Shown piece by piece: positions 322 to 36,329 of a DNA stretch of 36,329 nucleotides. Numbering within the stretch: position 1 is the stretch's first letter; the number at the start of each line of letters is the position of its first letter. Source of the DNA: a virus (taxonomy: Duplodnaviria; Heunggongvirae; Uroviricota; Caudoviricetes); IMG/VR virus record IMGVR_UViG_2737471834_000007; one strand, written 5' to 3'. The notes beneath the pieces are model-generated. The model was not told the DNA's origin, searched no databases, and saw nothing but the letters and a program-made list of their open reading frames with translations. Position numbers and translations under genes: made by a program.

Positions 322-462
322 TTACTGTTTACATTGTAAGAACGCCGCAAACTCCGCACCCCAGAAGCTCATCCGTATTTCACACAGCGAACCGTGCAAC
401 ATCCAGATGATAAGGATGACCGTCGCGCAGAACGTGATGGCCGTAAGCGATTTTTGCGACAT
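322..462 (-). CDS. Hok/Gef-family type I toxin (46 aa small membrane peptide), missing from the ORF track because it is under 60 aa
   Basis: Translation MSQKSLTAITFCATVILIIWMLHGSLCEIRMSFWGAEFAAFLQCKQ: hydrophobic N-terminus, SLCEI motif and E-x-AAFL-x-CK tail resemble E. coli HokA as recalled from memory. AAGGAG lies 8 nt upstream of the ATG at 462; stop TAA at 322-324. Confidence 0.6.
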   Translation of the reverse strand: MSQKSLTAITFCATVILIIWMLHGSLCEIRMSFWGAEFAAFLQCKQ

Positions 463-727: not shown

Positions 728-1108
728 TTATGAGTTCTGAAATTCTTCTGCACGCCTTTCCAGTTCAGCCATGAAAGATGTTCTGGCTTTTTCGTGAGCA
801 TCGGGGGCCATGATGCTGATGATTTGTATATTGTTATAATCCATCCAGTGCCTGGTATAAACCAGATAGATATTTGAAGTTCTGTCTATCTGGGCCTTGC
901 TTTTCTTCCATGGTGGTTCCGATGGTAGTCTTATGTGTAATTTATATACAAACGAACCACATAGTCTTGCGTTATCTTCCCACTGTCCTTCATTGCCGAA
1001 TCTGTCAGGGAGAACGCCGGTATTTAACCAGTTCTCCAGAGCTTTTCCGTAAATTTTTGCAATATCCTGGTATTCAACATCTTTATGAATACTTACTTTG
1101 CTCGCCAT
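728..1108 (-). CDS. Hypothetical cytoplasmic protein (126 aa), second gene of a two-gene cargo operon
   Basis: Start ATG overlaps the upstream stop by 1 nt (TGATG). No signal peptide. A YKLHIRL...IYLVYTRHW...IQIISI stretch is faintly RelE/ParE-like but not convincing. Confidence 0.5.
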   Translation of the reverse strand: MASKVSIHKDVEYQDIAKIYGKALENWLNTGVLPDRFGNEGQWEDNARLCGSFVYKLHIRLPSEPPWKKSKAQIDRTSNIYLVYTRHWMDYNNIQIISIMAPDAHEKARTSFMAELERRAEEFQNS

Positions 1109-1734
1109 CAGGAAAACTCCGGAGCCGGGAGTCCCATATTTTTATGCTCGGCAATAATCATTGTTTTCACATTTTCGTCAGACAGCGTATTGCCCAGACT
1201 GGTAGTTTTTTCAGGTGCAGTGCTTCGCTCGATGGCGTTGATGGTATCACGAACGATAAATTCACCCTGCGCAATTGCCCGACCAAAACGAACCAGTTTA
1301 TTGCGATAGGCGATTCTTTGCTCAAGACTGTCCGGATACATTTTTGCCAGGTTATCCGGGGCCATTACAATCCTGACAGCCTCTTTAACACGGGTGTGCT
1401 GCCTGAGTGACTCTTCGCATATTTTCGTTATTTTTGCTATGTTGTCAGTAAACAGCGCTCCTTTGCCTCTGTTCTGACGCTCTTCAATGACGGCATTGAG
1501 TGCAGCGCGCATGTTGTTATTCAGCCCGTTAATATATTCAATAGCTTCTTCAAGAGGCAGAAACACCTGGCCGTCATGATGCTCAAATGTAAGCATTGAA
1601 ACTACTCTGGCGTGCGTCCCGGATTCAATAACTGTTGTTGGTAGTATCGTGCTTTTAGCTGGCACCGGAGCCAGTGATGCTGTCAGAGCTGCAGCAATGG
1701 CAGCAATGGCAGCAGACTTTGATTTTTGTTTCAT
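1108..1734 (-). CDS. Predicted secreted/periplasmic protein (208 aa from the ATG at 1734; the track ORF starts at GTG 1746), first gene of the cargo operon
   Basis: N-terminus MKQKSKSAAIAAIAAALTASLAPVPAKS looks like a Sec signal peptide; GGAG 7 nt upstream of the ATG at 1734. No catalytic motif recognised. Confidence 0.55.
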   Translation of the reverse strand: MKQKSKSAAIAAIAAALTASLAPVPAKSTILPTTVIESGTHARVVSMLTFEHHDGQVFLPLEEAIEYINGLNNNMRAALNAVIEERQNRGKGALFTDNIAKITKICEESLRQHTRVKEAVRIVMAPDNLAKMYPDSLEQRIAYRNKLVRFGRAIAQGEFIVRDTINAIERSTAPEKTTSLGNTLSDENVKTMIIAEHKNMGLPAPEFS

Positions 1735-2215
1735 AATGCACTCCACAGGTTGATGTGTTCAGCATATCGCAAATAGCAACTTGCATAAAGAAACGCCACA
1801 TCGGCATCGATCGTTTTACGCGTTTTTTTTCTTGTTGTGATCCTTTTTTCAGTTTTATTTTACCCGTTAATTTTGCGCAGGCCGCGCCGTGTCTGGCTTC
1901 TTTGTCTGATGGTTGTTTGATGCGATCCCTTCGTGATCGTTTTTCGTCTCACGTAAAGTATGAAAACTCTTTTAATATCATGCTGTTTTATTGCTCCAGC
2001 CATTTGTGCGATCGAAAAAATCTCTCTTAAAATTGCAAAAAATTTCAAAGTGTGAAATTTCAGAACTTCGCTTTTCCCCCAGTTACTGCGCTGGCTGGCG
2101 GTCATTTTTGCACGACAGAAAACTGAAAAAGCGTTTCAACACAAAACCCGCGGGTTGGAGGGGGTAGCGCGGTTTACGTGACGTGACACTTTACGTCATG
2201 TCTGGCTGGTTATGT

Positions 2216-2325: not shown

Positions 2326-4065
2326 TCAGGCGATAAGGTCGCGGTATTTTTCCCGCAGGGAGGATGACTGTCTGGCATCACCGGTAAATTCACCACTGTT
2401 GGTGGGTGTGCCTGTGCCAGGATGTGCGTGTGTGGCAGTATGTGTTGCCAGTTGTTCAATGAGATCCAGAATATCAACGAACAACGTCATCAGGTTCAGG
2501 CTGTCGCCACCCTGTGAACCATTTCGGCCTATAAACAGGGTCGGCGCAGAGAGGGAAAGACCACCACTGGCGGTGGTGGTCTGTGTACCGCTGATGTTCT
2601 CTGTGATATTCCCGCTTACTGTGCTGTTAACATTACCGCCGATGGTTTCCTGCCTGTCAGCACTGATGCGGCGTATCTCTGCCTGTAATTCCGCAATAAG
2701 GCTGTTTGCTTTCATCCTGATATCACCGGTGGCCACAATACCGTAATCACCATCAGAACCATGGACGATCTGCCCTGCCATCAGTGAACTCGTCCCGAGT
2801 ACCGTGGTACTGTCTGTGGCCTGTACGGTTGTTGTGCGGGTTGTCGTCCGGCGGCTTTCCTGGTCGCTGGTTATGATTCGGTGTGCAGATTCTTCCCTGA
2901 TTTTCTGGTCCGTTTCCCGGTGCCATGTGCCGTCACGGGTAACCCTCTGAAATACTTCTGCACGCTGTTGCTGTAGCTGCTCGCCAGGCTGGATATCAGG
3001 AAGATTCAGTCCGGATGGGAGTATCTGCCTTATTACCGGTTTATCTGGCCGTCCTTCGATATGCGCGATTTCCACTATCGTTCCGGCTTCCGGATAAGAA
3101 AAACAACCGGCCTCATTTCCGGCCATGGGTACCGGAAGCGGCACAGCAGGATATACAGGCGTGTTGTTGCTATCGTTGCCGTTTTCGTCCAGTAACTGCA
3201 GGTCAACAGCATAACGTGGGCGAAAACTGTCTGCCACATCGCCAAGCGTCGTGGATTCTGTTGGCGAGATAACGCGGGCCAGTCTTGGGCGTAATGTTCC
3301 GTCAGCCAGCTCCGGAAACTGCGATTCTGTCTGACGGCGCAGAGGTGAGCTGGATACGACAGAACCATCCTGGCGAAACCTGTCCCATGTCAGTGTCATG
3401 GTTTCATTATGAATGGCCACACGCGTGATCCGTCCTGCAGGAAGGTTAACGCCGGGGCGCAGAGTCTCTATCAACATGATATCCATACTGTTGCCGGCGC
3501 TGTGCCCCAGTGCATATTCATCAGGAATTTCCGGGATGGTCAGCGATGCAAAGCGTGAGTCACTGGCGCTGCCAACGAATACAGAACCATCCGGCATGGG
3601 ATGCCAGACGTAATCCTGAATGCTGAATATCCTGCCAAGATGATCAAGCAGGCGGGTACCGCTTCCGCTGTGAGTGACGCAGGGTACTGGTGTGGATACA
3701 TAGGCAGATGACGCGGTAATAAACACGATACCGCTCTTTTTTCCGAGATCATCAAGAACATCACGCAGAGTCGGGTGCTGGATGACACACGGAAAGCTGA
3801 AATCCAGTACCGCGGCAGCTTCCCTGATGAACAGACGGCGGGCGCCGTTTTCTGCCGGTTGATCGCGCTCAACGTAACCTGAGAAATAACGCCAGGCCTG
3901 GCCATCACGCCCAAAATCAATCTGAATCATGGCACCGGCCAGCGTGCTGCGCTGATTCGGCAGGGTGACAAAACCTCTTCCTGATGCGTTCAGTGACAGG
4001 ACCAGACTGATGTCTGTTATTTCTGTCTGTTTACCGTTTACCATGCATCTCTGAATAATTTTCAT
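2326..4065 (-). CDS. Baseplate central spike protein (gpV/VgrG-like C-terminal half with a ~330 aa N-terminal extension)
   Basis: AGTIVEIAHIEGRPDKPVIRQILPSG resembles the gpV OB-fold motif; C-terminal ATHTATHAHPGTG (H-x-H) resembles the spike apex of P2 gpV as recalled from memory. Start overlaps the upstream stop. Confidence 0.5.
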   Translation of the reverse strand: MKIIQRCMVNGKQTEITDISLVLSLNASGRGFVTLPNQRSTLAGAMIQIDFGRDGQAWRYFSGYVERDQPAENGARRLFIREAAAVLDFSFPCVIQHPTLRDVLDDLGKKSGIVFITASSAYVSTPVPCVTHSGSGTRLLDHLGRIFSIQDYVWHPMPDGSVFVGSASDSRFASLTIPEIPDEYALGHSAGNSMDIMLIETLRPGVNLPAGRITRVAIHNETMTLTWDRFRQDGSVVSSSPLRRQTESQFPELADGTLRPRLARVISPTESTTLGDVADSFRPRYAVDLQLLDENGNDSNNTPVYPAVPLPVPMAGNEAGCFSYPEAGTIVEIAHIEGRPDKPVIRQILPSGLNLPDIQPGEQLQQQRAEVFQRVTRDGTWHRETDQKIREESAHRIITSDQESRRTTTRTTTVQATDSTTVLGTSSLMAGQIVHGSDGDYGIVATGDIRMKANSLIAELQAEIRRISADRQETIGGNVNSTVSGNITENISGTQTTTASGGLSLSAPTLFIGRNGSQGGDSLNLMTLFVDILDLIEQLATHTATHAHPGTGTPTNSGEFTGDARQSSSLREKYRDLIA

Positions 4066-20999: not shown

Positions 21000-21938
21000 T
21001 TAAATCAGTTTAAACGTGTTGGTTTCCGGCGCTCTTCCAGGAATGGTGGTGGCTTCACGGCTGAGTTCGCTGAATGCGGTTTCAAGATTTTCCACCTTCT
21101 GTGCAATATTCACGATGGTGGAAAACATTTTCTGCAGTTGCTCTTCTGACTGGGTGAAGGTGGCTTCAGTGCCTTCAGTCTTCTGCGTGTTATCCTGTGC
21201 ATTCGTTGTCTTTTCTGCGTCAGGTTCTGATTTCTCCTGCGCTGACAGTTGACTGAACTGATTTTCCAGTCTGTCCAGGCGATCTCCGGTCTGCTGAATG
21301 GCGCTCATCATCTGGTTAAATTGTTCCTGGTTCATTGGTGCCTCTTCCTGTTTGTGAGGTGACGAAGTGAAAAAGCGGGAGAAAAAGCCCCGTTTGGCCT
21401 GCTCATCATCAGTCTGCAGCGTGAAATTCAGCGTTTCTGCATTCCCCATGCGGACAGCGTTACCCTGTGAAAAGTGCAGGCGGGTGGTGTTAATGCTGGC
21501 CGGTGTGTCGGTGACAGCGATACCACTGAGCCAGAATTTGCCGGTGCCCATGTAGTCATCGCTGATTTCCACGGATGTGAACAGCTTCTGTCCGGCCTTG
21601 TTGGCTTCCAGGAGGAAACGGTTCGGCACAATGCGGGCTTTGAGCTGGATCCTGTCGCCGAATTTTTCGGTTTTCAGTTCCTCAATTGTGCCGTAGTTGT
21701 TGGTGAAGGCACGCCAGCCAGGGTCAGCATGATATGGCCAGAGCATGGCAGTGTATTCTTCCGCGTTATAGACCTCTGTGGCATCTGTCAGCCATTTTTC
21801 TTCAATATCGCGACCGTCAACAGCCTTTCCCGAGGTGGCGACCACAACCCAGTCTGTTTTCTGTTTCGTCATAGGAAATTTATTCACTGATAAAACCGTA
21901 CTGCGGGTATTAGATGAATAATCCTGTGCCGGCGTCAT
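21000..21938 (-). CDS. Capsid scaffolding protein, gpO-like (start probably at 21872, MTKQK)
   Basis: WVVVATSGKAVDGRDIEEKWLTDATEVYNAEEYTAMLWPYH fits the gpO family N-terminal pattern; Gln/Glu-rich coiled-coil C-terminus. Confidence 0.65.
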   Translation of the reverse strand: MTPAQDYSSNTRSTVLSVNKFPMTKQKTDWVVVATSGKAVDGRDIEEKWLTDATEVYNAEEYTAMLWPYHADPGWRAFTNNYGTIEELKTEKFGDRIQLKARIVPNRFLLEANKAGQKLFTSVEISDDYMGTGKFWLSGIAVTDTPASINTTRLHFSQGNAVRMGNAETLNFTLQTDDEQAKRGFFSRFFTSSPHKQEEAPMNQEQFNQMMSAIQQTGDRLDRLENQFSQLSAQEKSEPDAEKTTNAQDNTQKTEGTEATFTQSEEQLQKMFSTIVNIAQKVENLETAFSELSREATTIPGRAPETNTFKLI

Positions 21939-22057
21939 CCTGTTTATTTCTGCTGTATTCGGATAAACCGGTATATCCGAAAATAACTGAATTCTGCTGT
22001 TCGTCTTCAGAAAGGCCTTTTTCGAAAATGGTCGAAGTTTATTTATACGGAGGAGTT
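21939..22057. promoter_or_regulatory. Divergent late promoter region between the scaffold operon (-) and the terminase-portal operon (+)
   Basis: Short AT-rich gap between divergent operon starts. The P2 late-promoter dyad TGT-N12-ACA was not found here. Confidence 0.4.
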
Positions 22058-23836
22058 ATGGCTTATTCTGATGAAGTGATAGCTGCTGCCCGTGCGCTGT
22101 ATCTGAAACGGTATACGCCGAAAGAAATACAAAAAAAGCTGGGGCTTAACAGTCCGCGTATTGTTTATTACTGGGCAACAAAATATGAGTGGTATACGCA
22201 GCTCAGTACCGAAGGTGTGGAGGAGGTGATCGCCCGTCGTGTGATGACGCTGACAGAGCGTGAACATAAAAGTCAGGAAGAGCGGGATGAACTTGATCGT
22301 CTTATCGGGCACCATGTGAAACTGATGTCTGCCAGACACAGACATACAGAACGAATGGCAGAAATTGAACATATGTCTGTTGAGATGGCAGACAGTTCGC
22401 CGGTATCCCGTGGTAACAGTGAAAGCGGTAAAAAAGAACGCCGACGTAAGGCTAATGATATTTCCGGACTGACGGCAGAGAGTTTTGAACCGTTTACTAA
22501 AAAACTGTTCGCTTATCAGTTACACCTTCGGAAAAACAAAATTCGCCGTGTACGTAATTTGCTTAAATCCCGTCAGATTGGAGCAACCTTTTATTTTGCC
22601 TTTGAAGCTTTCGAAGATGCTGTATTAACTGGCGACACTCAGATATTTCTGTCCGCTTCAAAACGTCAGGCGGAAGTCTTTCGTACCTATATTGTTAAAA
22701 TTGCACAGCAGGAATTTGGGATTGCAATTAAGGGTAATCCTGTCAGGTTAAGTAATATGGCTGAGCTGTATTTTCTGGCAACGAACAGTAACACCGCACA
22801 GTCAAACAGTGGTCACGTGTACATTGATGAATATCTGTGGATCCCCGGCTTTGAACGTCTTAATACGGTTGCTTCCGGTATGGCCACACACTCGCGGTGG
22901 CGTCTGACCTATTTTTCCACACCGTCCGGTAAAACACACCAGGGATACGCGTTCTGGTCCGGTGATGAATGGCGACGCGGAGATCCGAAGCGTAAACAGG
23001 TTGAATTCCCGTCCTTTGATGAGCTGCGTGACGGTGGACGCGAATGTCCTGACGGACAGTGGCGTTACGTGGTGACGCTGGAAGATGCCATTGCCGGTGG
23101 ATTTAACCTTGCCGATATCAACGAGCTGCGCGAACGATACAGTGAGACCGCGTTCAGGATGTTGTTTATGTGCCAGTTCGTGGACGACAAGGAGAGCATT
23201 TTCCGTTTTGAAGATCTGGAGCGTTGTGGTGTTGACCCCCGAATATGGGAGGACTTCAATCCTGATGAACCGGCGCCGTTCGGTAATCGTGAGGTCTGGG
23301 GCGGTTTTGACCCGGCGAGAGGGGGGGATAATGCCACGTTTGTGGTGGTGGCACCGCCACTGGTCGAAGGGGAACGCTTTCGTGTACTGGAAAAACATCA
23401 CTGGCGCAGCATGTCATTTCAGTATATGGCTGAACGTATCCGCGCCATTAAATCCCGCTATAACATGACCTTTATCGGGATAGATGTCACCGGGCTCGGG
23501 TATGGCGTTTATGAACTTGTTCAGGGATTTGCCCGCCGTGAAACCGTGGCCATTCATTACAGCGTTGAGAGTAAAAATCGTCTGGTGATGAAAATGCTGG
23601 ATGTGGTGGATGCCCGGCGCATCGAATGGGATGAAGAGGCAAAGGATATTCCGGCTTCATTCATGGCCATTCGCCAGGAAACCACAGGCAGTGGCAACAA
23701 AGTTACCTTTACGGCAGAACGTAGTGAGGAAACCGGCCATGCGGATGTGTTTTTCGCTATTGCCCATGCGCTCAGTAATGAGCCGCTGAATTACAAAAAT
23801 AAACGCAAATCAACGTGGGTTTTTGCTGATGACTAA
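22058..23836 (+). CDS. Terminase large (ATPase) subunit, gpP-like (592 aa from the ATG at 22058)
   Basis: GGAGGAG SD 5 nt upstream of the ATG at 22058; size matches P2 gpP; the track ORF begins upstream at 21914, overlapping the divergent gene. Confidence 0.8.
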   Translation: MAYSDEVIAAARALYLKRYTPKEIQKKLGLNSPRIVYYWATKYEWYTQLSTEGVEEVIARRVMTLTEREHKSQEERDELDRLIGHHVKLMSARHRHTERMAEIEHMSVEMADSSPVSRGNSESGKKERRRKANDISGLTAESFEPFTKKLFAYQLHLRKNKIRRVRNLLKSRQIGATFYFAFEAFEDAVLTGDTQIFLSASKRQAEVFRTYIVKIAQQEFGIAIKGNPVRLSNMAELYFLATNSNTAQSNSGHVYIDEYLWIPGFERLNTVASGMATHSRWRLTYFSTPSGKTHQGYAFWSGDEWRRGDPKRKQVEFPSFDELRDGGRECPDGQWRYVVTLEDAIAGGFNLADINELRERYSETAFRMLFMCQFVDDKESIFRFEDLERCGVDPRIWEDFNPDEPAPFGNREVWGGFDPARGGDNATFVVVAPPLVEGERFRVLEKHHWRSMSFQYMAERIRAIKSRYNMTFIGIDVTGLGYGVYELVQGFARRETVAIHYSVESKNRLVMKMLDVVDARRIEWDEEAKDIPASFMAIRQETTGSGNKVTFTAERSEETGHADVFFAIAHALSNEPLNYKNKRKSTWVFADD

Positions 23837-24878
23837 AAAGAATAAACAGTGCCGGCAGCAAGGTGATGTCGCAGTGAATACGCAAGGACAGTCAGCAGGC
23901 AAAAAAATGAGCCTGATTGAATTTGGTGATCCCGAGCCAGTTGCTGCCTGGGGAAGTTATAACGGCACATTCTGGGACGGTTATAACGGCTATTACCAGC
24001 CGCCTGTTGAACGGATGGACCTTGCCGTACTGGCCAATATTGCCCCCTATCATGGGGCAGTGTTACGTGCGCGGGTTAATATGATTATGCAGGGATTTAA
24101 AAGTGGTGGCGGCATGAGTCACGCGGCAATGACAGCAGCTGTCACCAACCTGCTGATATTCGGTGATGTCGGACTGCTGAAAGTGCGCAATGGTTTCGGG
24201 AAAGTGGTCAGGCTTGTCACGCTACCCTCCCTGTATCTGCGCCGCAACAGTAACGGTGGAACGGTGATCGTGCAGATGGCTATGGATGACACGGTATATG
24301 GACCTGATGAAGTGGTCTTTGTTGCCATCTACGATCCGCAACAACAGGTATATGGGGTTCCGGACTATATCCATGGTATGGAGTCCGCCATGCTTAATGT
24401 GGATGCCACCCGGTTCCGCCGTAAATATTTTAAAAACGGCGCACACCTCGGTTACATTTTATATACCACGGATCCTGATATGTCGCCTGAGCTCGAGGGT
24501 GAGTTTCGTAAAAAAATTGAACAGTCAAAAGGCGCAGGAAATTTTAAATCCATGTTTATTAATATACCCGGAGGGAATGCTGAGGGGGTGAAGGTAATTC
24601 CTGTTGGTGATACCGGTACCAAAGATGAATTTCTGAATATCAAGAATATCAGTGCGCAGGACCAACTTGTTGCGCACCGTTTCCCGCCAGGGCTGGCTGG
24701 CATTATTCCAGCCAATACTGCAGGACTTGGTGATCCGCTCAAATCACGCGAAGCGTATTACCGTGATGAAGTGATCCCTATGCGACGGCTGATAATGGAA
24801 AGTATCAACAGTGACCGTGATATTCTCCGCCTCGGGCGCGTGGTGTTTGACCTTAATTTTGAAGAGCAGGGCAGATAA
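23823..24878 (+). CDS. Portal protein, gpQ-like (351 aa)
   Basis: Follows the large terminase with a 14-nt overlap; size matches P2 gpQ. Confidence 0.75.
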   Translation: MLMTKKNKQCRQQGDVAVNTQGQSAGKKMSLIEFGDPEPVAAWGSYNGTFWDGYNGYYQPPVERMDLAVLANIAPYHGAVLRARVNMIMQGFKSGGGMSHAAMTAAVTNLLIFGDVGLLKVRNGFGKVVRLVTLPSLYLRRNSNGGTVIVQMAMDDTVYGPDEVVFVAIYDPQQQVYGVPDYIHGMESAMLNVDATRFRRKYFKNGAHLGYILYTTDPDMSPELEGEFRKKIEQSKGAGNFKSMFINIPGGNAEGVKVIPVGDTGTKDEFLNIKNISAQDQLVAHRFPPGLAGIIPANTAGLGDPLKSREAYYRDEVIPMRRLIMESINSDRDILRLGRVVFDLNFEEQGR

Positions 24879-24943
24879 TGTGCTGTACAGGACGAGAGCG
24901 GTTAAAATCACCACGACCGAAGCAATCTGTCGGGAGGTGGAAC

Positions 24944-25201
24944 ATGCGCAGACAAAAGGCACGGTGTCATTGCTGTGGTTCGGTGGCCATTATTGAAAAA
25001 ACCGTATGGAAAACGGACCATTTTGCTGATGTATATTACCGCTGTACCCGGCTTGACTGTGGACATACCTGGGTGATGAATCTGACCTATTCTCATACGC
25101 TTGTCCCAAGCGGTCTGGATAACGGTGTACTGAAATTACTGATAGAACGTATGCGCCCGGAAGAAAAGCAGATGGCGCTGGAATTGCTGCAGGCTGGATG
25201 A
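24944..25201 (+). CDS. Ogr/Delta-family zinc-finger late transcription activator (85 aa)
   Basis: C-x2-C ... C-x4-C arrangement (CHCCGS ... CTRLDCGH); GGGAGGTGG SD before the ATG at 24944. Confidence 0.6.
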   Translation: MRRQKARCHCCGSVAIIEKTVWKTDHFADVYYRCTRLDCGHTWVMNLTYSHTLVPSGLDNGVLKLLIERMRPEEKQMALELLQAG

Positions 25202-25279
25202 GTGTCTGTACATAGATTTGTGTAATTGTCTGATTGTGCATGTCCTGCTCAGCCATTTTCTGACGCGCTTTGCTTGTCC

Positions 25280-25324
25280 AACCGGGAACAGGCGCACAAA
25301 GAATTTGCGCACCTGTTCCCGGTT
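25280..25324. terminator. Bidirectional intrinsic terminator between convergent genes
   Basis: AACCGGGAACAGG ... CCTGTTCCCGGTT (13-bp arms) with T-rich sequence following on the + strand. Confidence 0.6.
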
Positions 25325-25332
25325 CTCTTTAA

Positions 25333-25824
25333 TTATTTCTTGTTATGCCATCTGACCACACCACCTGCCAGGATAACGGCTTTTTCGATATCCCGTTCAT
25401 AGCGTAAAGGCTGAAACACACCGTCGATGAAGTATTCACTGATTTCTGGCAGGGAAACCGTAAAGCTCCTTGATGTGTTTTTGTGCAGTAAGACTGCATG
25501 CTTTAGTGCATCCTGGGCTTTCTGGAATTTCAGCGCATAGTCAGTCGCGATTTCTTCCAGCTCAGCGATGCGCAGCTTCGCTTTTCCCAGTTCTTTTTCT
25601 GCTTTATCTGCACGTTCAGCCTCGGACCCGGCGAGCTGAAAGTAATGCCACTTTTCTCCTTCGTACAGGTTAACGTAATCCCTGAGTCTGTCCCGTTCGT
25701 CCAGGAGAGCCAGTACCACCGATGGTGTGGTCTTAATACGAAATGCCAGAAGTTTCTTTGGTGTTGCCACTTTTTCTGTTGCCGTTGCTGCGTCACGCAA
25801 CGCCTGATAATCGACTTCGTTCAT
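25333..25824 (-). CDS. Hypothetical coiled-coil protein (163 aa from MNEVDYQ)
   Basis: ATG at 25824 overlaps the upstream stop (ATGA); heptad-like KAEKELGKAKLRIAELEE segment. Confidence 0.5.
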   Translation of the reverse strand: MNEVDYQALRDAATATEKVATPKKLLAFRIKTTPSVVLALLDERDRLRDYVNLYEGEKWHYFQLAGSEAERADKAEKELGKAKLRIAELEEIATDYALKFQKAQDALKHAVLLHKNTSRSFTVSLPEISEYFIDGVFQPLRYERDIEKAVILAGGVVRWHNKK

Positions 25825-26252
25825 TGTGGTGTTCTCCGGTGTTGTGTCGGCCTGGCGAATGAATTGCGTTGTGGTGAAAAGACCATTCCCGCCAGCGCGG
25901 CCTTGCGATTGACGACATTCAGTGTTCTGGCCAGCGCTGCGTTGTGTTTGTGTGCCTGTTCTTCGTGGTACTTCTGCATGATTTTCCCTGCAGGTGTGCA
26001 CGGCTCCGACTCCTCCGGCGAACGGCGGGTACGAACTGAGACAATCCAGCTCTTATGTTCATTTCCCGGCCGTCTGTTGAGTATATCTGTAATGGTGGTT
26101 TTCGTGGTGCGGTCAGGATTGACCACTGTGATTTCCAGTTCATCGCCGGGTTGTGGTCTCGTGGCAATGTTGTTCAGAGTCAGTAATGGCGTGCGCTGGC
26201 GCATCATGTTGTCAAAGCGCTGGCGCTGCATGGTGCAGTAAAAACGGGTCAT
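25821..26252 (-). CDS. Hypothetical protein (143 aa) translationally coupled to the replication gene
   Basis: ATGA overlap with the gpA-like stop at 26249-26252. Confidence 0.5.
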   Translation of the reverse strand: MTRFYCTMQRQRFDNMMRQRTPLLTLNNIATRPQPGDELEITVVNPDRTTKTTITDILNRRPGNEHKSWIVSVRTRRSPEESEPCTPAGKIMQKYHEEQAHKHNAALARTLNVVNRKAALAGMVFSPQRNSFARPTQHRRTPQ

Positions 26253-28786
26253 TGTGGCCCCTCCGTTTTCTGTGCAGGGTTGAGCTCAATGCGGCGGGTG
26301 TTGTCGTTCCAGTACGCGGTGCGCCCGTCATCCAGGAGAACACGGGCCCCGTTACGCACGGAAATAATGGCTGCGTCAGGCAGTTGTACGCCCAGTGCAT
26401 CGAGTTCGCGGGTGATTTGTGCGGTGATGTGTGGCTCTGCTGTCAGTGCGACATCCACGCGAACGCCGTCAGTGGGCGCACTGATGCCGCCGTTTTTCAC
26501 GGTTTCTGTGTCAGGTGGCGGGTTTTTCAACTGCCGGGTGAGTTGTTTTCTCTGTACCGGTGTCAGCGACCTCAGCCATTCGGTTAAATCACCTTCCGGC
26601 AGGATAAGTCGTTGCTCCCTGCGTCTGTCCTGTTTCCCTTCTGGCGTGGCATTACTGGTTAAATTCTGGTCATGGGGACAGTTATTGCCACGAGTCCAAG
26701 GGGCGACAAAGTCGCCCTCAACGTCAAAATCAGTTTCGCTGGCGCTGTCTTCACCTTCCGGCTTACGTCTGACCAGTTTCCAGGTGTCCGGATGGGTGCA
26801 TATGGTGTACTGCTCCCCGAGTGACGGTGCACGGACACCGTAAATACGTTGCGGAAATTCGCCGTAGTCGTTGGCCTCTTCGGCGGTTTCGTATGCGGTG
26901 CGGACCAGGTACGTGTTGCGGGGAATGAGTACACCACCCTGCCTGGTGATGTAGGTGGCAAAACATCCCACATCAGCGGCGGCCAGTATGGCGTCAATGT
27001 CTTCATTATCGAGGCGCTGTGGTGCCTTCGGGTTACGGGCTATCTGCCCGGCAAGACGGCGGAGTTCGCGCCATACCTGGCGTGGCGGGATACCGAAGAA
27101 CTGGAACTGGCGGATGCGGTGAAGGGCCGCCCAGCCGATGGCGTTCTCCACGGTTTCGGCCATGGTTTTACCTGATTCCCTGTCGGAGTATGGTTTGCCG
27201 GTTTTCGGGTCATTTCCCATAAATACGCTGGCGTCCAGGTTCTTACCGATATAGGTCGCGATATAGCTTGCCGGGGTGCCTTTTGCCGGGTCGATTTTTT
27301 CGCATTTAAAACGCGGGGAGATATCATCACCCAGCTCTGCGCAGTCCTCCCTGATGGCGGCGTTGCGCATGATTTCAGTGATACGGGCTTCGTTTTCCTG
27401 GCTGGTGAATACCAGCATGTGCCAGTGCGGTGTGCCGTCGTGGTGAGGCTCCACGGTGCGTACACCGTACCAGCCCAGCCCGGCTTTGCTGATGATCTTG
27501 CGGACGGCAGCGAAAAATCTGTAAACCAGGTAATCACTGGCATCGCGTACCGTTGCCCCGCAGAATTTCTGGTTCAGGCTGCCGTCATCGTTCACGCTGT
27601 GAAAACGGGAAGGGGCGGTGACGGTGACGAAAAACGCCACATCGCCGCGCGCTTCGGCGACCTGCTCCATTCCCCGGACGCAGGCCATCATCTCGTTGCG
27701 ACGGTTGCGCGGATTGGCGAGTCCGGCCCAGTAGATATCCTCAAGGCTGAACCGCTCTCCCTCTTCGTTCTCGACATCCCAGGCTTTCAGAAAATCGCGG
27801 GTGCGCTGGCGTTTTTCGCGCCAGTCCAGTAACGCTTCATGGCTGATGTATACCGACTCCTTACGTGACACCAGACCTGCGGCGCGTAACAGCTCTTCCC
27901 GCCAGATGTCGCGAAGGTGTCTTAACTGACCGTTCCACCAGTTCGCGCAGGAAAGACGCATGACCGCACCCGGCACCTGTTCCAGGTCGGGGGCGGTGCG
28001 GCGGTCGGGTCTGATTTCCAGCGACGGCCAGCAGGGCGGGGTGATACCCAGTTTTAACGCCATATGTGCCAGCGGCTGGTAGGTCAGCAGCCAGGTGTAC
28101 AGGTCATCATCCCCCTTTCCGGTCCTTTTGATGGCCTCATCACATGCGCGCTCCAGTGCGGCGGAAAATGCGGTGGCGGTCAGGGTGGCAAGGCGCTGAA
28201 TGTCGTCGCGCTCCAGTTGCGGGAGTATCAGGAGTTCATCCAGTCGTTCGCGGGCAGCGGTGGCCTTAAATGCTGTAGTGGCAAACCGTTCATTCACCTG
28301 TCTGATGCGTTTCAGACGGGCACGCAGCCCGTGACGAACGAAGTTATCCGCTGCGTATGCGCTGTTGTTCTTAAGTTCTTTCTGACGGGCATCGTCCTGT
28401 TTGCGTCTGAAGAACGCCAGCCTGCGAATCAACGGTCCGGCGAGAAAGGCCGGAAGGGCGCGCAGCTCTGCCATGGCCTCGGATACCAGCGTGGGTGGGT
28501 TATCGCGTCTGTACCTGGCCAGCTTTTCCAGCCGTATCTGCCGCTCTTCGTCGTGATGAAGGTGCGAATTAATCTGCCTGCCTTTTTCTGTGCATGTCAG
28601 GAAGACGACGGTTTCTTCATCCAGCCGGGCATTAATCCGGATGTCTTCGTTGATGTAGCTCTGAATTGCCCTGCGTAATGCCGTCGGCTTCTGTGGTAAC
28701 GCTCTGCCGAAGGTTTCCGGGTCGATAACGGGCAGTGGAGCGTTCCATGACCAGGCCCATTCGCGGTTGGTGTTCATGGCGATCAC
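26249..28786 (-). CDS. Rolling-circle replication initiator/endonuclease, gpA-like (845 aa)
   Basis: HUH motif (TPHWHMLVF) and paired catalytic tyrosines (SYIATYIGK), characteristic of P2 A-type initiators. Confidence 0.8.
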   Translation of the reverse strand: MIAMNTNREWAWSWNAPLPVIDPETFGRALPQKPTALRRAIQSYINEDIRINARLDEETVVFLTCTEKGRQINSHLHHDEERQIRLEKLARYRRDNPPTLVSEAMAELRALPAFLAGPLIRRLAFFRRKQDDARQKELKNNSAYAADNFVRHGLRARLKRIRQVNERFATTAFKATAARERLDELLILPQLERDDIQRLATLTATAFSAALERACDEAIKRTGKGDDDLYTWLLTYQPLAHMALKLGITPPCWPSLEIRPDRRTAPDLEQVPGAVMRLSCANWWNGQLRHLRDIWREELLRAAGLVSRKESVYISHEALLDWREKRQRTRDFLKAWDVENEEGERFSLEDIYWAGLANPRNRRNEMMACVRGMEQVAEARGDVAFFVTVTAPSRFHSVNDDGSLNQKFCGATVRDASDYLVYRFFAAVRKIISKAGLGWYGVRTVEPHHDGTPHWHMLVFTSQENEARITEIMRNAAIREDCAELGDDISPRFKCEKIDPAKGTPASYIATYIGKNLDASVFMGNDPKTGKPYSDRESGKTMAETVENAIGWAALHRIRQFQFFGIPPRQVWRELRRLAGQIARNPKAPQRLDNEDIDAILAAADVGCFATYITRQGGVLIPRNTYLVRTAYETAEEANDYGEFPQRIYGVRAPSLGEQYTICTHPDTWKLVRRKPEGEDSASETDFDVEGDFVAPWTRGNNCPHDQNLTSNATPEGKQDRRREQRLILPEGDLTEWLRSLTPVQRKQLTRQLKNPPPDTETVKNGGISAPTDGVRVDVALTAEPHITAQITRELDALGVQLPDAAIISVRNGARVLLDDGRTAYWNDNTRRIELNPAQKTEGPQ

Positions 28787-29780: not shown

Positions 29781-29840
29781 AAGCGGTTTTTTTGTGTGTG
29801 CATGATGATCACTCAGTCCGGTAACAGTTCACGGAGCACG
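29781..29840. repeat. Direct repeat copy A (~57-60 bp) at the 3' end of the methyltransferase gene
   Basis: About 85% identical to 30876-30932 by hand alignment (AAGCGGTTTTT..GTGTGTGCATG...ACTCAGTCCGGTA.CAGTTC). Confidence 0.6.
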
Positions 29841-30828
29841 GCGTCAGCTGTTGTTCTGTGGTGTAAGAGGTAAACATCGCGCTGTAAGTTGTATCTCCCG
29901 TCACCGTGCCGCAGTCCGGACAGTAGCCGCCGCCATGGCGACCACAGGCGGCGCACTGTCTCAGGGTGGCGATAACCTCCGGTGCTGGTTTTCGGGTTTT
30001 TGCGCCAACGCTTCGAGGTGCCTGGATGCGGTTCATCCGGTAGCCCTGATAAATGCGCCGGGTTTCCGGTGTGTCGGAGCCGGAAATGGTTATGCTGGTC
30101 ATTCCACCTGTTTCCTGTGAAAGACGGTCAAGCGCTGCTCTCAGGCGAACGTGTTCGTCCTTCGTGAAGGGGTTTTCGTAGGCGGTGAAATTGTCCCGGC
30201 CACTGAATGGCAGGTAAGGGGGATCGCAGTACACGCAAAGCGTACTACCTATGCTGAACAGGTGACTGGCAGTGTTCAGCGTTTTCTGAAAATCGCCATG
30301 AACAAGCAGTGTTCTGGTGCTGTTTGCCTTGTCTGCAAATGCGCGGATTTCCCGTTCAGGGAAGTAGGGAGCCCGGTAGCCACCGAATGGGACATTAAAA
30401 TCCCCTTTTTCATTCACCCGGTACAGGCCATTAAAGCAGTGCCTGTTGAGGTATAAAAACATGGCGGCCAGCCGTAATTCGCGACGGTCGCTTATTCCCG
30501 TGCTCAGGAATGCATGATTCTCTGCATTAAAGGTGTTACGGATAGCGAGATAGTCAGTCCTGTTGTTGTGCTCCAGGAACAGGCCTTTTGCTTCGTTGAT
30601 CAGACTGTCGGTGTTGTCCCGTGCTGCCCGACAGAAATTAATCAGCGCACCATTGGAATCACCCGGGATGTAGCGGCTGTAACTGGTGTTCATGAATACC
30701 GATGCGCCACCCACGAACGGCTCAACCAGGCAGTCAGCTTCTGGCAGGTGCGCCTTCAGTGTGTTCATGATGCGGCTTTTCCCGCCCACCCATTTCAGCG
30801 GTGTGCCGGATAACAGTTCTTTGCTCAT
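29809..30828 (-). CDS. Dam-family N6-adenine DNA methyltransferase (339 aa), orphan
   Basis: AdoMet-binding motif (EPFVGGASVF) N-terminal and catalytic DPPY C-terminal (alpha-class order); Cys-rich C-terminal tail; no restriction endonuclease partner seen. Confidence 0.8.
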   Translation of the reverse strand: MSKELLSGTPLKWVGGKSRIMNTLKAHLPEADCLVEPFVGGASVFMNTSYSRYIPGDSNGALINFCRAARDNTDSLINEAKGLFLEHNNRTDYLAIRNTFNAENHAFLSTGISDRRELRLAAMFLYLNRHCFNGLYRVNEKGDFNVPFGGYRAPYFPEREIRAFADKANSTRTLLVHGDFQKTLNTASHLFSIGSTLCVYCDPPYLPFSGRDNFTAYENPFTKDEHVRLRAALDRLSQETGGMTSITISGSDTPETRRIYQGYRMNRIQAPRSVGAKTRKPAPEVIATLRQCAACGRHGGGYCPDCGTVTGDTTYSAMFTSYTTEQQLTPCSVNCYRTE

Positions 30829-36077: not shown

Positions 36078-36329
36078 ATGCGTATTACCATAAAAAGATG
36101 GGGGAACAGTGCAGGTATGGTCATTCCCAATATCGTAATGAAAGAACTTAACTTACAGCCGGGGCAGAGCGTGGAAGCGCAGGTGAGCAACAACCAACTG
36201 ATTCTGACACCCATCTCCAGGCGCTACTCGCTTGATGAACTGCTGGCACAGTGTGACATGAACGCCGCGGAACTTAGCGAGCAGGATGTCTGGGGTAAAT
36301 CCACCCCTGCGGGTGACGAAATATGGTAA
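36078..36329 (+). CDS. chpS: ChpS (ChpBI) antitoxin of the chpSB toxin-antitoxin pair (host gene); the chpB start codon overlaps its stop at 36324
   Basis: MRITIKRWGNSAGMVIPNIVMKELNLQPGQ...GDEIW is the MazE-type AbrB-fold antitoxin ChpS; AAGGAGG SD; terminal ATGGTAA gives the overlapping chpB start. Confidence 0.85.
   Translation: MRITIKRWGNSAGMVIPNIVMKELNLQPGQSVEAQVSNNQLILTPISRRYSLDELLAQCDMNAAELSEQDVWGKSTPAGDEIW

Follow-up and report, generated by a model that had tools for sequence, protein, structure and literature searches.

Here, we describe a two-hairpin element in a P2-family (Peduoviridae) prophage of the P2/HP1-like type, carried on a 36,329-nucleotide (nt) stretch of viral DNA (IMG/VR record IMGVR_UViG_2737471834_000007; this whole stretch is called the window throughout). 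The element lies in the 131-bp intergenic region (25202-25332) between the gene for an Ogr-like late activator and the early operon, and consists of a long hairpin (hairpin I) and a conserved 19-nt box, which can fold as a second hairpin and is separated from the first by 1 nt (G at 25279). Sequence and architecture suggest that the two form one signal acting on the minus strand as single-stranded DNA (ssDNA), namely, a primosome assembly site of the phiX174 type; we give this reading a probability of roughly 0.6. P2-type phages replicate as rolling circles, and P2 depends on a protein of its own, the helicase loader gpB, to begin the lagging strand. Many of its relatives, this prophage, HP1, and PV94 among them, are without gpB, and a phiX174-type site downstream of the gpA origin would be a concrete hypothesis for lagging-strand initiation in this lineage and in P88-like coliphages. 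A preliminary description of the window had taken the hairpin most simply for a bidirectional terminator, or for a possible element of a cos region, and had overlooked the box beside it (25260-25278, minus strand). The parts of the intergenic region are as follows.

25280-25324, minus strand: hairpin I, a 21-bp stem with a 3-nt loop, AACCGGGAACAGGTGCGCAAA TTC TTTGTGCGCCTGTTCCCGGTT
25260-25278, minus strand: conserved box, or hairpin II, GACAAGCAAAGCGCGTCAG; consensus GACAAGCGAAGCGCGTCAG
25325-25341, plus strand: T-rich tail CTCTTTAATTATTTCTT after the stem, overlapping the stop codon of the Ead/Ea22-like gene
25202-25259: variable spacer that separates the box from the ogr stop codon

Hairpin I and the 19-nt box

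The gene context in the preliminary description, with the hairpin between the Ogr-like gene (plus strand) and the end of the early operon (minus strand), was borne out, as was the 13-bp perfect inverted repeat, which supplies the outer arms of the hairpin (AACCGGGAACAGG/CCTGTTCCCGGTT, 25280-25292 and 25312-25324). A repeat search gave full arms of 21 nt (25280-25300 and 25304-25324; 90% complementary) around a 3-nt loop. The two inner mismatches are C.A on the plus strand and G.U/G.T wobbles on the minus strand, so that only the minus strand has an uninterrupted 21-bp stem. Predicted RNA folds reached −50.9 kcal/mol on the plus strand (z = −4.8) and −49.8 kcal/mol on the minus strand (z = −6.1), and the DNA fold of the minus strand (86 nt) had a z of −6.06. 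For each of the three, no fold among 200 dinucleotide shuffles was as good.

Relatives (n = 27) were retrieved from IMG/VR via the Ogr protein. Most of them have CTGACGCGCTTCGCTTGTCC right after the ogr stop codon and next the same hairpin, whose outer stem shows compensatory changes; the spacer between ogr and the box is missing in most, where the ogr stop codon abuts the box. When six distinct variants were aligned, the minus-strand stem paired in 100% of cells, four stem pairs changed on both sides (0 of 500 shuffles reached the observed value), and every non-Watson-Crick position was a G.T wobble on the minus strand and an A.C mismatch on the plus strand. BLAST of the region against phage and Escherichia coli genome collections found no close relative covering the intergenic region.

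The consensus box can fold as GAC-AA-GCG-AAG-CGC-GTC. The window copy has one mismatch to the consensus and is the single occurrence in the window; 100 shuffles gave no match, even at up to 3 mismatches. Contained in the box is the GCGAAGC mini-hairpin, a DNA-specific, ultra-stable structure reported to be enriched at ssDNA replication start sites. An Rfam scan of 24900-25700 found no family, with only sub-threshold generic hairpin matches to microRNA models, and a full-text literature search for the box sequence returned no relevant paper. The 16 P88-like phage records that span the element have only protein-coding genes, or nothing (two unannotated records), under the match.

Both sequence and architecture are shared with an experimentally defined primosome assembly site, that of phiX174 (2302-2373). 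There, the F-G intergenic region (~2302-2373) is the complementary-strand origin, ori(−), with the n′/PriA primosome assembly site, a hairpin-forming site at which PriA, PriB, DnaT, and DnaC load DnaB, as described in reviews. A saturation mutagenesis study of phiX174 identified the large hairpin both with T_F, a terminator that overlaps ori(−), and with the site bound by PriA, and found 16 detrimental mutations on both stems of a “shorter hairpin immediately downstream (nt 2353-2373)” (bioRxiv 10.64898/2026.07.25.740675). This short hairpin is the counterpart of the box (ACCAAGCGAAGCGCGGT at 2353-2371), and hairpin I matches the PriA-binding hairpin in position and size. In phiX174, a long AT-tipped hairpin is followed by GGGGTTGACC-AAGCGAAGCGCG-GTAG (also ...AACGCCGAAGCGGTAAAAATTTTAATTTTTGCCGCTGAGGGGTTGACC AAGCGAAGCGCG GTAGG), and on the window minus strand a long AT-tipped hairpin is followed by CCGGTTGGAC-AAGCAAAGCGCG-TCAG.

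The two sites have in common the hairpin span, the apex-to-box distance, a large hairpin of ~45 to 54 nt with an AT-rich tip, the G-rich GGTTG at its 3′ base, and the 12-nt core AAGCGAAGCGCG in the small hairpin directly 3′ of it (11/12 positions in the window, 12/12 in the relatives). The two-hairpin layout falls on the packaged strand in phiX174 and on the putatively displaced strand here; in both, a gpA-type HUH nickase starts the replicon from an ori (here a predicted one) inside its own gene, and the large hairpin doubles as a transcription terminator (probably so in the window). They differ in the outer stem of the box, which is ACC..GGT in phiX174 and GAC..GTC here (two compensatory pairs), and in the inner stem, GCA in the window instead of GCG. 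They also differ in the strand used for termination, which in the window would be opposite to that of the ssDNA signal, and in the replicon itself, a 5.4-kb ssDNA phage compared with a 36-kb double-stranded DNA temperate myovirus. The comparison suggests that the mutation-sensitive short hairpin of phiX174 may belong to ori(−), and not only to the terminator.

Distribution of the element and its proposed role in replication

The strand that carries the uninterrupted stem and the box is the sense strand of gpA, the rolling-circle initiator, and would become single stranded during replication. Two features of that gene bear on the element.

26249-28786, minus strand: gpA, rolling-circle initiator (HUH endonuclease; PF05840, E = 1.6e−104)
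26685-26708, minus strand: within gpA, a homologue of the nick site in the ori of P2 (P2, GCGCCTCGGAGTCCTGTCAATAAC; window, GCCCCTTGGACTCGTGGCAATAAC)

The position of the nick-site homologue puts the element ~1.4 kb downstream on the same strand; in the P2 record, the nick site is at 29892 on the A-sense strand. In the proposed scheme, gpA would nick the ori inside its own gene (~26.7 kb, minus strand), and rolling-circle synthesis would displace the minus strand, 5′ end first. If the sense strand is the one nicked, little non-coding DNA would be displaced in single-stranded form earlier than the element, and after ~1.4 kb it would be exposed and both hairpins could fold. Host PriA, with PriB, DnaT, and DnaC, would then recognise the folded element and load DnaB, which would move 5′ to 3′ toward the fork while DnaG primes the lagging strand.

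In this scheme, the element would replace the phage-encoded helicase loader gpB of P2, and no homologue of P2 gpB was found in the window with tblastn. Both systems would start the lagging strand on the strand displaced by gpA rolling-circle replication (as noted in the P2 record), P2 with a phage protein that loads DnaB and without a box, the window with a box and without gpB. HP1 (by homology search) and PV94 (PMC3986222) are also without gpB. Strict complementarity between gpB and the box was considered and rejected because HP1 and PV94 have neither.

On the displaced strand of ColE1, 120 to 170 nt downstream of ori and beside a DnaA box, stands ACCGAGCGTAGCGAGTCAG-TGAGCGAGGAAGCGGAAAAGCGCC (also ACCGAGCGTAGCGAGTCAGTGAGCGAGGAAGCGGAAAAGCGCC), in the region at which reviews place the PriA-dependent n′-pas/ssiA (rriA; ColE1/pBR322). 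Like the element proposed here, ssiA lies on the displaced strand a short way downstream of the origin and loads DnaB for the lagging strand. It contains AGCGTAGCGAGTC, a sequence also present in several hairpin-I loops of the family, and then GAGGAAGCGGAAAAGCGCC; these resemble the hairpin-I loops of some members and the box. The likeness to the window copy is limited to an AAGCG..AAG..GCGC theme and is weaker than that to phiX174, and the distance from the origin is ~150 nt in ColE1 versus ~1.4 kb here.

Signals of the G4 type (G4, alpha3, and St-1) are likewise ssDNA hairpins, occupy the same microvirus intergenic position, and contain a GCGAAAGC-type mini-hairpin, but DnaG reads them without an intermediary, from a CTG start site, and they do not have the 19-nt box. 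In G4 and alpha3, no match to the box was found at up to 5 mismatches, nor to the 12-nt core at up to 2, which sets the element apart from these primase-only signals.

To define the distribution of the box, IMG/VR was scanned with a 17-mer of it, which gave at least 120 loci, in P88-like coliphages, window-like phages, high-GC contigs, and many 4- to 6-kb microvirus-like contigs. Of 27 sequence-distinct IMG/VR clusters, 25 have, upstream of the exact box, a strong hairpin that is unrelated in sequence and ends ≤4 nt from it. The exact 19-mer was found at 92 loci when one genome per bacterial species was searched (~4 expected by chance, by our own estimate), and there a hairpin ends ≤5 nt from the exact box, mostly 1 nt, in 80 of 94 occurrences. 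The carriers at the 92 loci were characterised by a Pfam survey of neighbouring open reading frames (ORFs), classification by marker proteins being mostly uninformative; the neighbours include KorB, MobA/MobL, SprT-like, integrase, primase-helicase, portal, and microvirus capsid genes.

The microvirus-like contigs (~35, 4 to 6 kb), whose identity is supported by 500-amino-acid (aa) ORFs homologous to the Phage_F capsid, always have the box on the coding strand, the one packaged as ssDNA. At Peduoviridae loci (P88-like and window-like), it lies downstream of gpA and on the gpA-sense strand in 52 of 52 cases, and the portal gene faces it from the opposite strand in 86 of 86. The box of P88-like coliphages overlaps the stop codon of the portal gene and is preceded by another hairpin, CGGGGCATAAATTTTTTATGCCCCG (L002, P88_4B11, NC_049391, 355-408); it is surrounded by a conserved non-coding block of ~450 bp, within which the P88_4B11 record has its termini.

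Some microvirus-like contigs of ~4.2 kb (L034, L038, L070, L092, L115, and others) have, 7 nt after the box, a stem-loop with ACTTGATAT, which resembles the phiX174 gpA cleavage site, so that the (+)- and (−)-strand origins appear to be adjacent in these contigs. Four near-identical contigs of 0.4 to 2.7 kb with the same hairpin and box (L188, L199, L227, and L250) come from assemblies of unrelated organisms (Neopoerus, Streptomyces, Moraxella, and Ramlibacter), which points to either a common small replicon or contamination from the laboratory or a reagent.

The element would be a new instance of the phiX174-type signal, and the invariant box across microviruses, plasmids, mobile elements, and two Peduoviridae lineages would be the wider pattern. 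To our knowledge, primosome assembly sites have long been described without a consensus, as sites recognised by structure alone. We raise tentatively, at less than even odds, the idea that a variable hairpin followed after ~1 nt by GACAAGCGAAGCGCGTCAG is a sequence-specific, hitherto unformalised consensus for complementary- or lagging-strand initiation, common to many Microviridae, to plasmids of the ColE1-like and other types, to conjugative and integrative elements, and to two lineages of P2/HP1-like temperate phages. If it is, primosome assembly sites would have a conserved recognition box, and gpB-less Peduoviridae would have adopted the phiX174 solution for starting the lagging strand. 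With the 19-nt box as a simple search motif, such signals can be looked for in phages, plasmids, and other mobile elements.

Architecture, polarity, and distribution point to action as ssDNA without naming the reader, and an ssDNA signal read by something other than PriA would fit them too: a site for DnaG priming, an RNA polymerase promoter of the M13/Frpo type, a landmark that excludes SSB (the protein that binds ssDNA), or a secondary or termination HUH site. Strict invariance of the box is unusual for PriA, which is structure specific in the literature, and mini-hairpins of this kind reportedly resist being bound by SSB and mark the sites of primase. Against such a reader, the only characterised homologues, phiX174 ori(−) and the ColE1 ssiA region, are PriA dependent, and the primase-only origins of G4 and alpha3 are without the box. 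For an HUH site in particular, the homologue of the gpA nick site lies elsewhere, inside gpA, and the initiators of the carriers are unrelated (microvirus Rep, gpA, and none in ColE1), which argues for a host factor. We regard a reader other than PriA as quite improbable.

Several observations weigh against a primosome assembly site. The 55-nt effector of the n′ ATPase of phiX174 is described as covering only the large hairpin, and the box is not known to act in primosome assembly, in phiX174 either. The window box and that of its near-identical relative (L003) have a G-to-A change at the loop-closing pair, which may weaken the box. No box was found in P2, 186, HP1, or PV94, and the family as a whole can therefore do without it. 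A ColE1-like plasmid (L251) carries the exact box upstream of the RNA II promoter, and its strand was worked out as the leading-strand template, which is not the canonical ssiA position. That gpA nicks its own sense strand, and so displaces the minus strand, is drawn from the P2 record and from phiX174 gpA. The box always has the mRNA sense, whether in microviruses or in Peduoviridae, where it stands at the 3′ end of the early operon, and the element may for that reason have a role at the RNA level. A simple terminator scan did not call the plus-strand hairpin, probably because of its two internal mismatches. Finally, the sensitivity of the phiX174 box to mutation was ascribed by the authors of that study to transcription termination (bioRxiv 10.64898/2026.07.25.740675).

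Probable transcription termination and the packaging site

The genes that flank the element, and the second region considered below, are the following.

21914-23836, plus strand: large terminase
23823-24878, plus strand: portal
24941-25201, plus strand: Ogr/Delta-type zinc-finger late activator (PF04606, E = 1.6e−11; phrog_603)
25333-25823, minus strand: Ead/Ea22-like ORF, last gene of the early/replication operon (PF13935)
2100-2200, minus strand: probable cos region with its core at 2147-2171, CGCGCTACCCCCTCCAACCCGCGGG, aligning with the mapped HP1 and PV94 cos junctions
2326-4065: last tail gene

Hairpin I probably also terminates the terminase-portal-ogr operon on the plus strand. There, the GC-rich stem, which has two 1×1 mismatches, is followed by a T-rich tail (CUCUUUAAUUAUUUCUU; relatives, UUUUCUUAUU) that is cleaner in the relatives (TTTTCTTATT), and stem and tail together make a credible intrinsic terminator. 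The minus strand continues after the stem with GGACAAGCAAAGCGCGTCAGAAAATGG (also GGACAAGCAAAGCGCGUCAGAAAAUGG) and has no U-tract, nor do the relatives. Of the bidirectional terminator proposed in the preliminary description, the plus-strand half thus stands, whereas the lack of a U-tract on the minus strand argues against an intrinsic terminator in both directions. The terminators P2 tQ, 186 tW, and HP1 T31 are likewise GC-rich hairpins that end the P-Q operon (here P-Q-ogr) between convergent late and early genes; they are plain terminators, whereas that of the window has a box and a stem that pairs better on the other strand. The double use seen in phiX174 T_F/ori(−) would be split between two strands in the window.

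The element could be transcriptional only, with the hairpin as an intrinsic terminator and the box as an RNA accessory (a second terminator hairpin, or a signal for 3′-end stability or processing). The plus-strand tail fits this, as do the mRNA sense of the box, the annotation of the large phiX174 hairpin as T_F, and the explanation of the small-hairpin sensitivity by termination in the mutagenesis study (bioRxiv 10.64898/2026.07.25.740675). On the strand that carries the box in its sense, however, neither hairpin is followed by a U-tract, in the window or in the relatives, and the P88-like copies have no T-run on either side. An invariant 19-mer across unrelated replicons of many bacterial groups is unlike intrinsic terminators, the GCGAAGC core is DNA specific and enriched at ssDNA replication start sites, and no Rfam family matched. 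G4 and alpha3, moreover, need terminators in the same intergenic position, yet are without the box. We therefore consider a purely transcriptional role unlikely, and prefer a primosome assembly site whose larger hairpin would also serve as a terminator.

The preliminary description had also suggested that the packaging site may be near the hairpin, as in P2-type phages, and had proposed a comparison with known P2-family cos sequences. A packaging site here, either cos or a terminase-binding site, would resemble P2 and 186 in its position beside the portal/terminase operon, and the box of P88-like phages lies in the conserved non-coding block that holds the ends of one deposited record. That comparison found no P2-type cosN above chance and no likeness to the HP1/PV94 junctions at the hairpin. 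The P2/186-type cosN pattern GGCGNGGCGGGG had 11 matches in the window at ≤2 mismatches (10.5 expected), all inside genes. Conservation of the element does not follow the terminase: it is common to microviruses, a ColE1-like plasmid, and other mobile elements, and the microviruses and plasmids package without cos. The adjoining spacer is variable: it tolerates a 656-bp insertion, and other relatives have no spacer at all. The ends of the P88_4B11 record were tried as a guide to cos and rejected, since other P88-like records run across the junction and the P88 block has no counterpart in the window.

The large terminase is of the HP1/PV94 type, closest to those of ESSI-2, vB_YenM_324, HP1/HP2, K139, and PV94 (54 to 59% aa identity), and a homologue of the HP1/PV94 cos junction is found at ~2147-2171 instead. 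In HP1, the mapped cos follows the last tail gene, next to attP/int; in PV94, 16-nt cohesive ends were mapped experimentally at the equivalent position (PMC3986222). The window candidate, which sits between the last tail gene and the accessory genes, has a core, CGCGCTACCCCCTCCAACCCGCGGG, with (C/G)ACGTAAA repeats flanking it and with TTTTGTGTT and TTTTTCAGTT after it. It shares with HP1 and PV94 the CACG(G/T)AA repeats, a C-rich core, TTTTTCAGTT, and the position after the last tail gene; the region 25202-25332 has nothing in common with those sites. A 36-nt core of the candidate is invariant in 22 relatives, whose terminase/portal DNA is only ~76% identical. The probable cos of the window is thus at ~2147-2171; together with the missing cosN and the variable spacer, this places cos ~23 kb from the hairpin and makes a packaging function for the hairpin extremely unlikely. 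For annotation, the cos of this prophage family would belong at the HP1-type position near the end of the tail genes, not beside the portal gene.

The preliminary description was right that ogr is in a non-P2 position, which is, however, the normal arrangement of HP1-type phages. HP1 (L153, NC_001697) has an unannotated Ogr homologue at 10447-10650 (minus strand; 32% identity over 68 aa, E = 2e−8), just downstream of the portal gene Q, so that HP1-type phages seem to have their late activator as the final gene of the P-Q operon.

Gene layout and accessory regions

The late genes of the window are collinear with those of HP1, and the terminase-portal operon ends with the Ogr/Delta gene. On the other side of the element, the stop codon of the Ead/Ea22-like ORF (25333-25335, minus strand) stands 8 nt before hairpin I, and one further ORF of the early operon separates it from gpA.

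Between the Ead/Ea22-like ORF and gpA, minus strand: phrog_14984 ORF

Accessory genes (morons) seem to be inserted into the spacer that lies between ogr and the box. A relative that is 99.5% identical (L003) has the 656-bp insertion there (L003 3266-3921, at window 25205/25215), between ogr and the element, and this encodes a 208-aa ORF with a hydrophobic N terminus and no Pfam match. Five others (L006, L007, L014, L020, and L023; ~3265-3482) have an insert of ~218 bp at this place, after ogr and before the box, which is non-coding, conserved, and structured, reading GCCAACCTCTCAGCTGGCGTGGTTGGAGTCCCAG...GGCGGTATCAAC TTTTTT GGGAGCCGCC. This insert was considered as a cos candidate and rejected, the same contig also having the HP1-like cos site.

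In the left accessory region, a 46-aa ORF of the Hok/Gef toxin family (322-462, minus strand; PF01848, E = 1.2e−6) lies within a stretch (251-609) that is 73% identical to DNA downstream of ogr in L024-type relatives. A YafO-family toxin ORF (728-1108, minus strand; PF13957, E = 1e−27) is preceded by a 212-aa ORF (1108-1746, minus strand) with no Pfam match, and the two may form a toxin-antitoxin pair, carried as cargo on the far side of the cos site. No direct repeat of ≥11 nt was found between the two window ends in a search for att sites. At the right edge is a MazE-family antitoxin gene (36078-36329, plus strand), where the window probably enters the host chromosome; its product presumably resembles E. 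coli ChpS (ChpBI). The early operon also encodes, upstream of gpA, a D12-class N6-adenine DNA methyltransferase (29809-30828, minus strand; PF02086, E = 1e−50).

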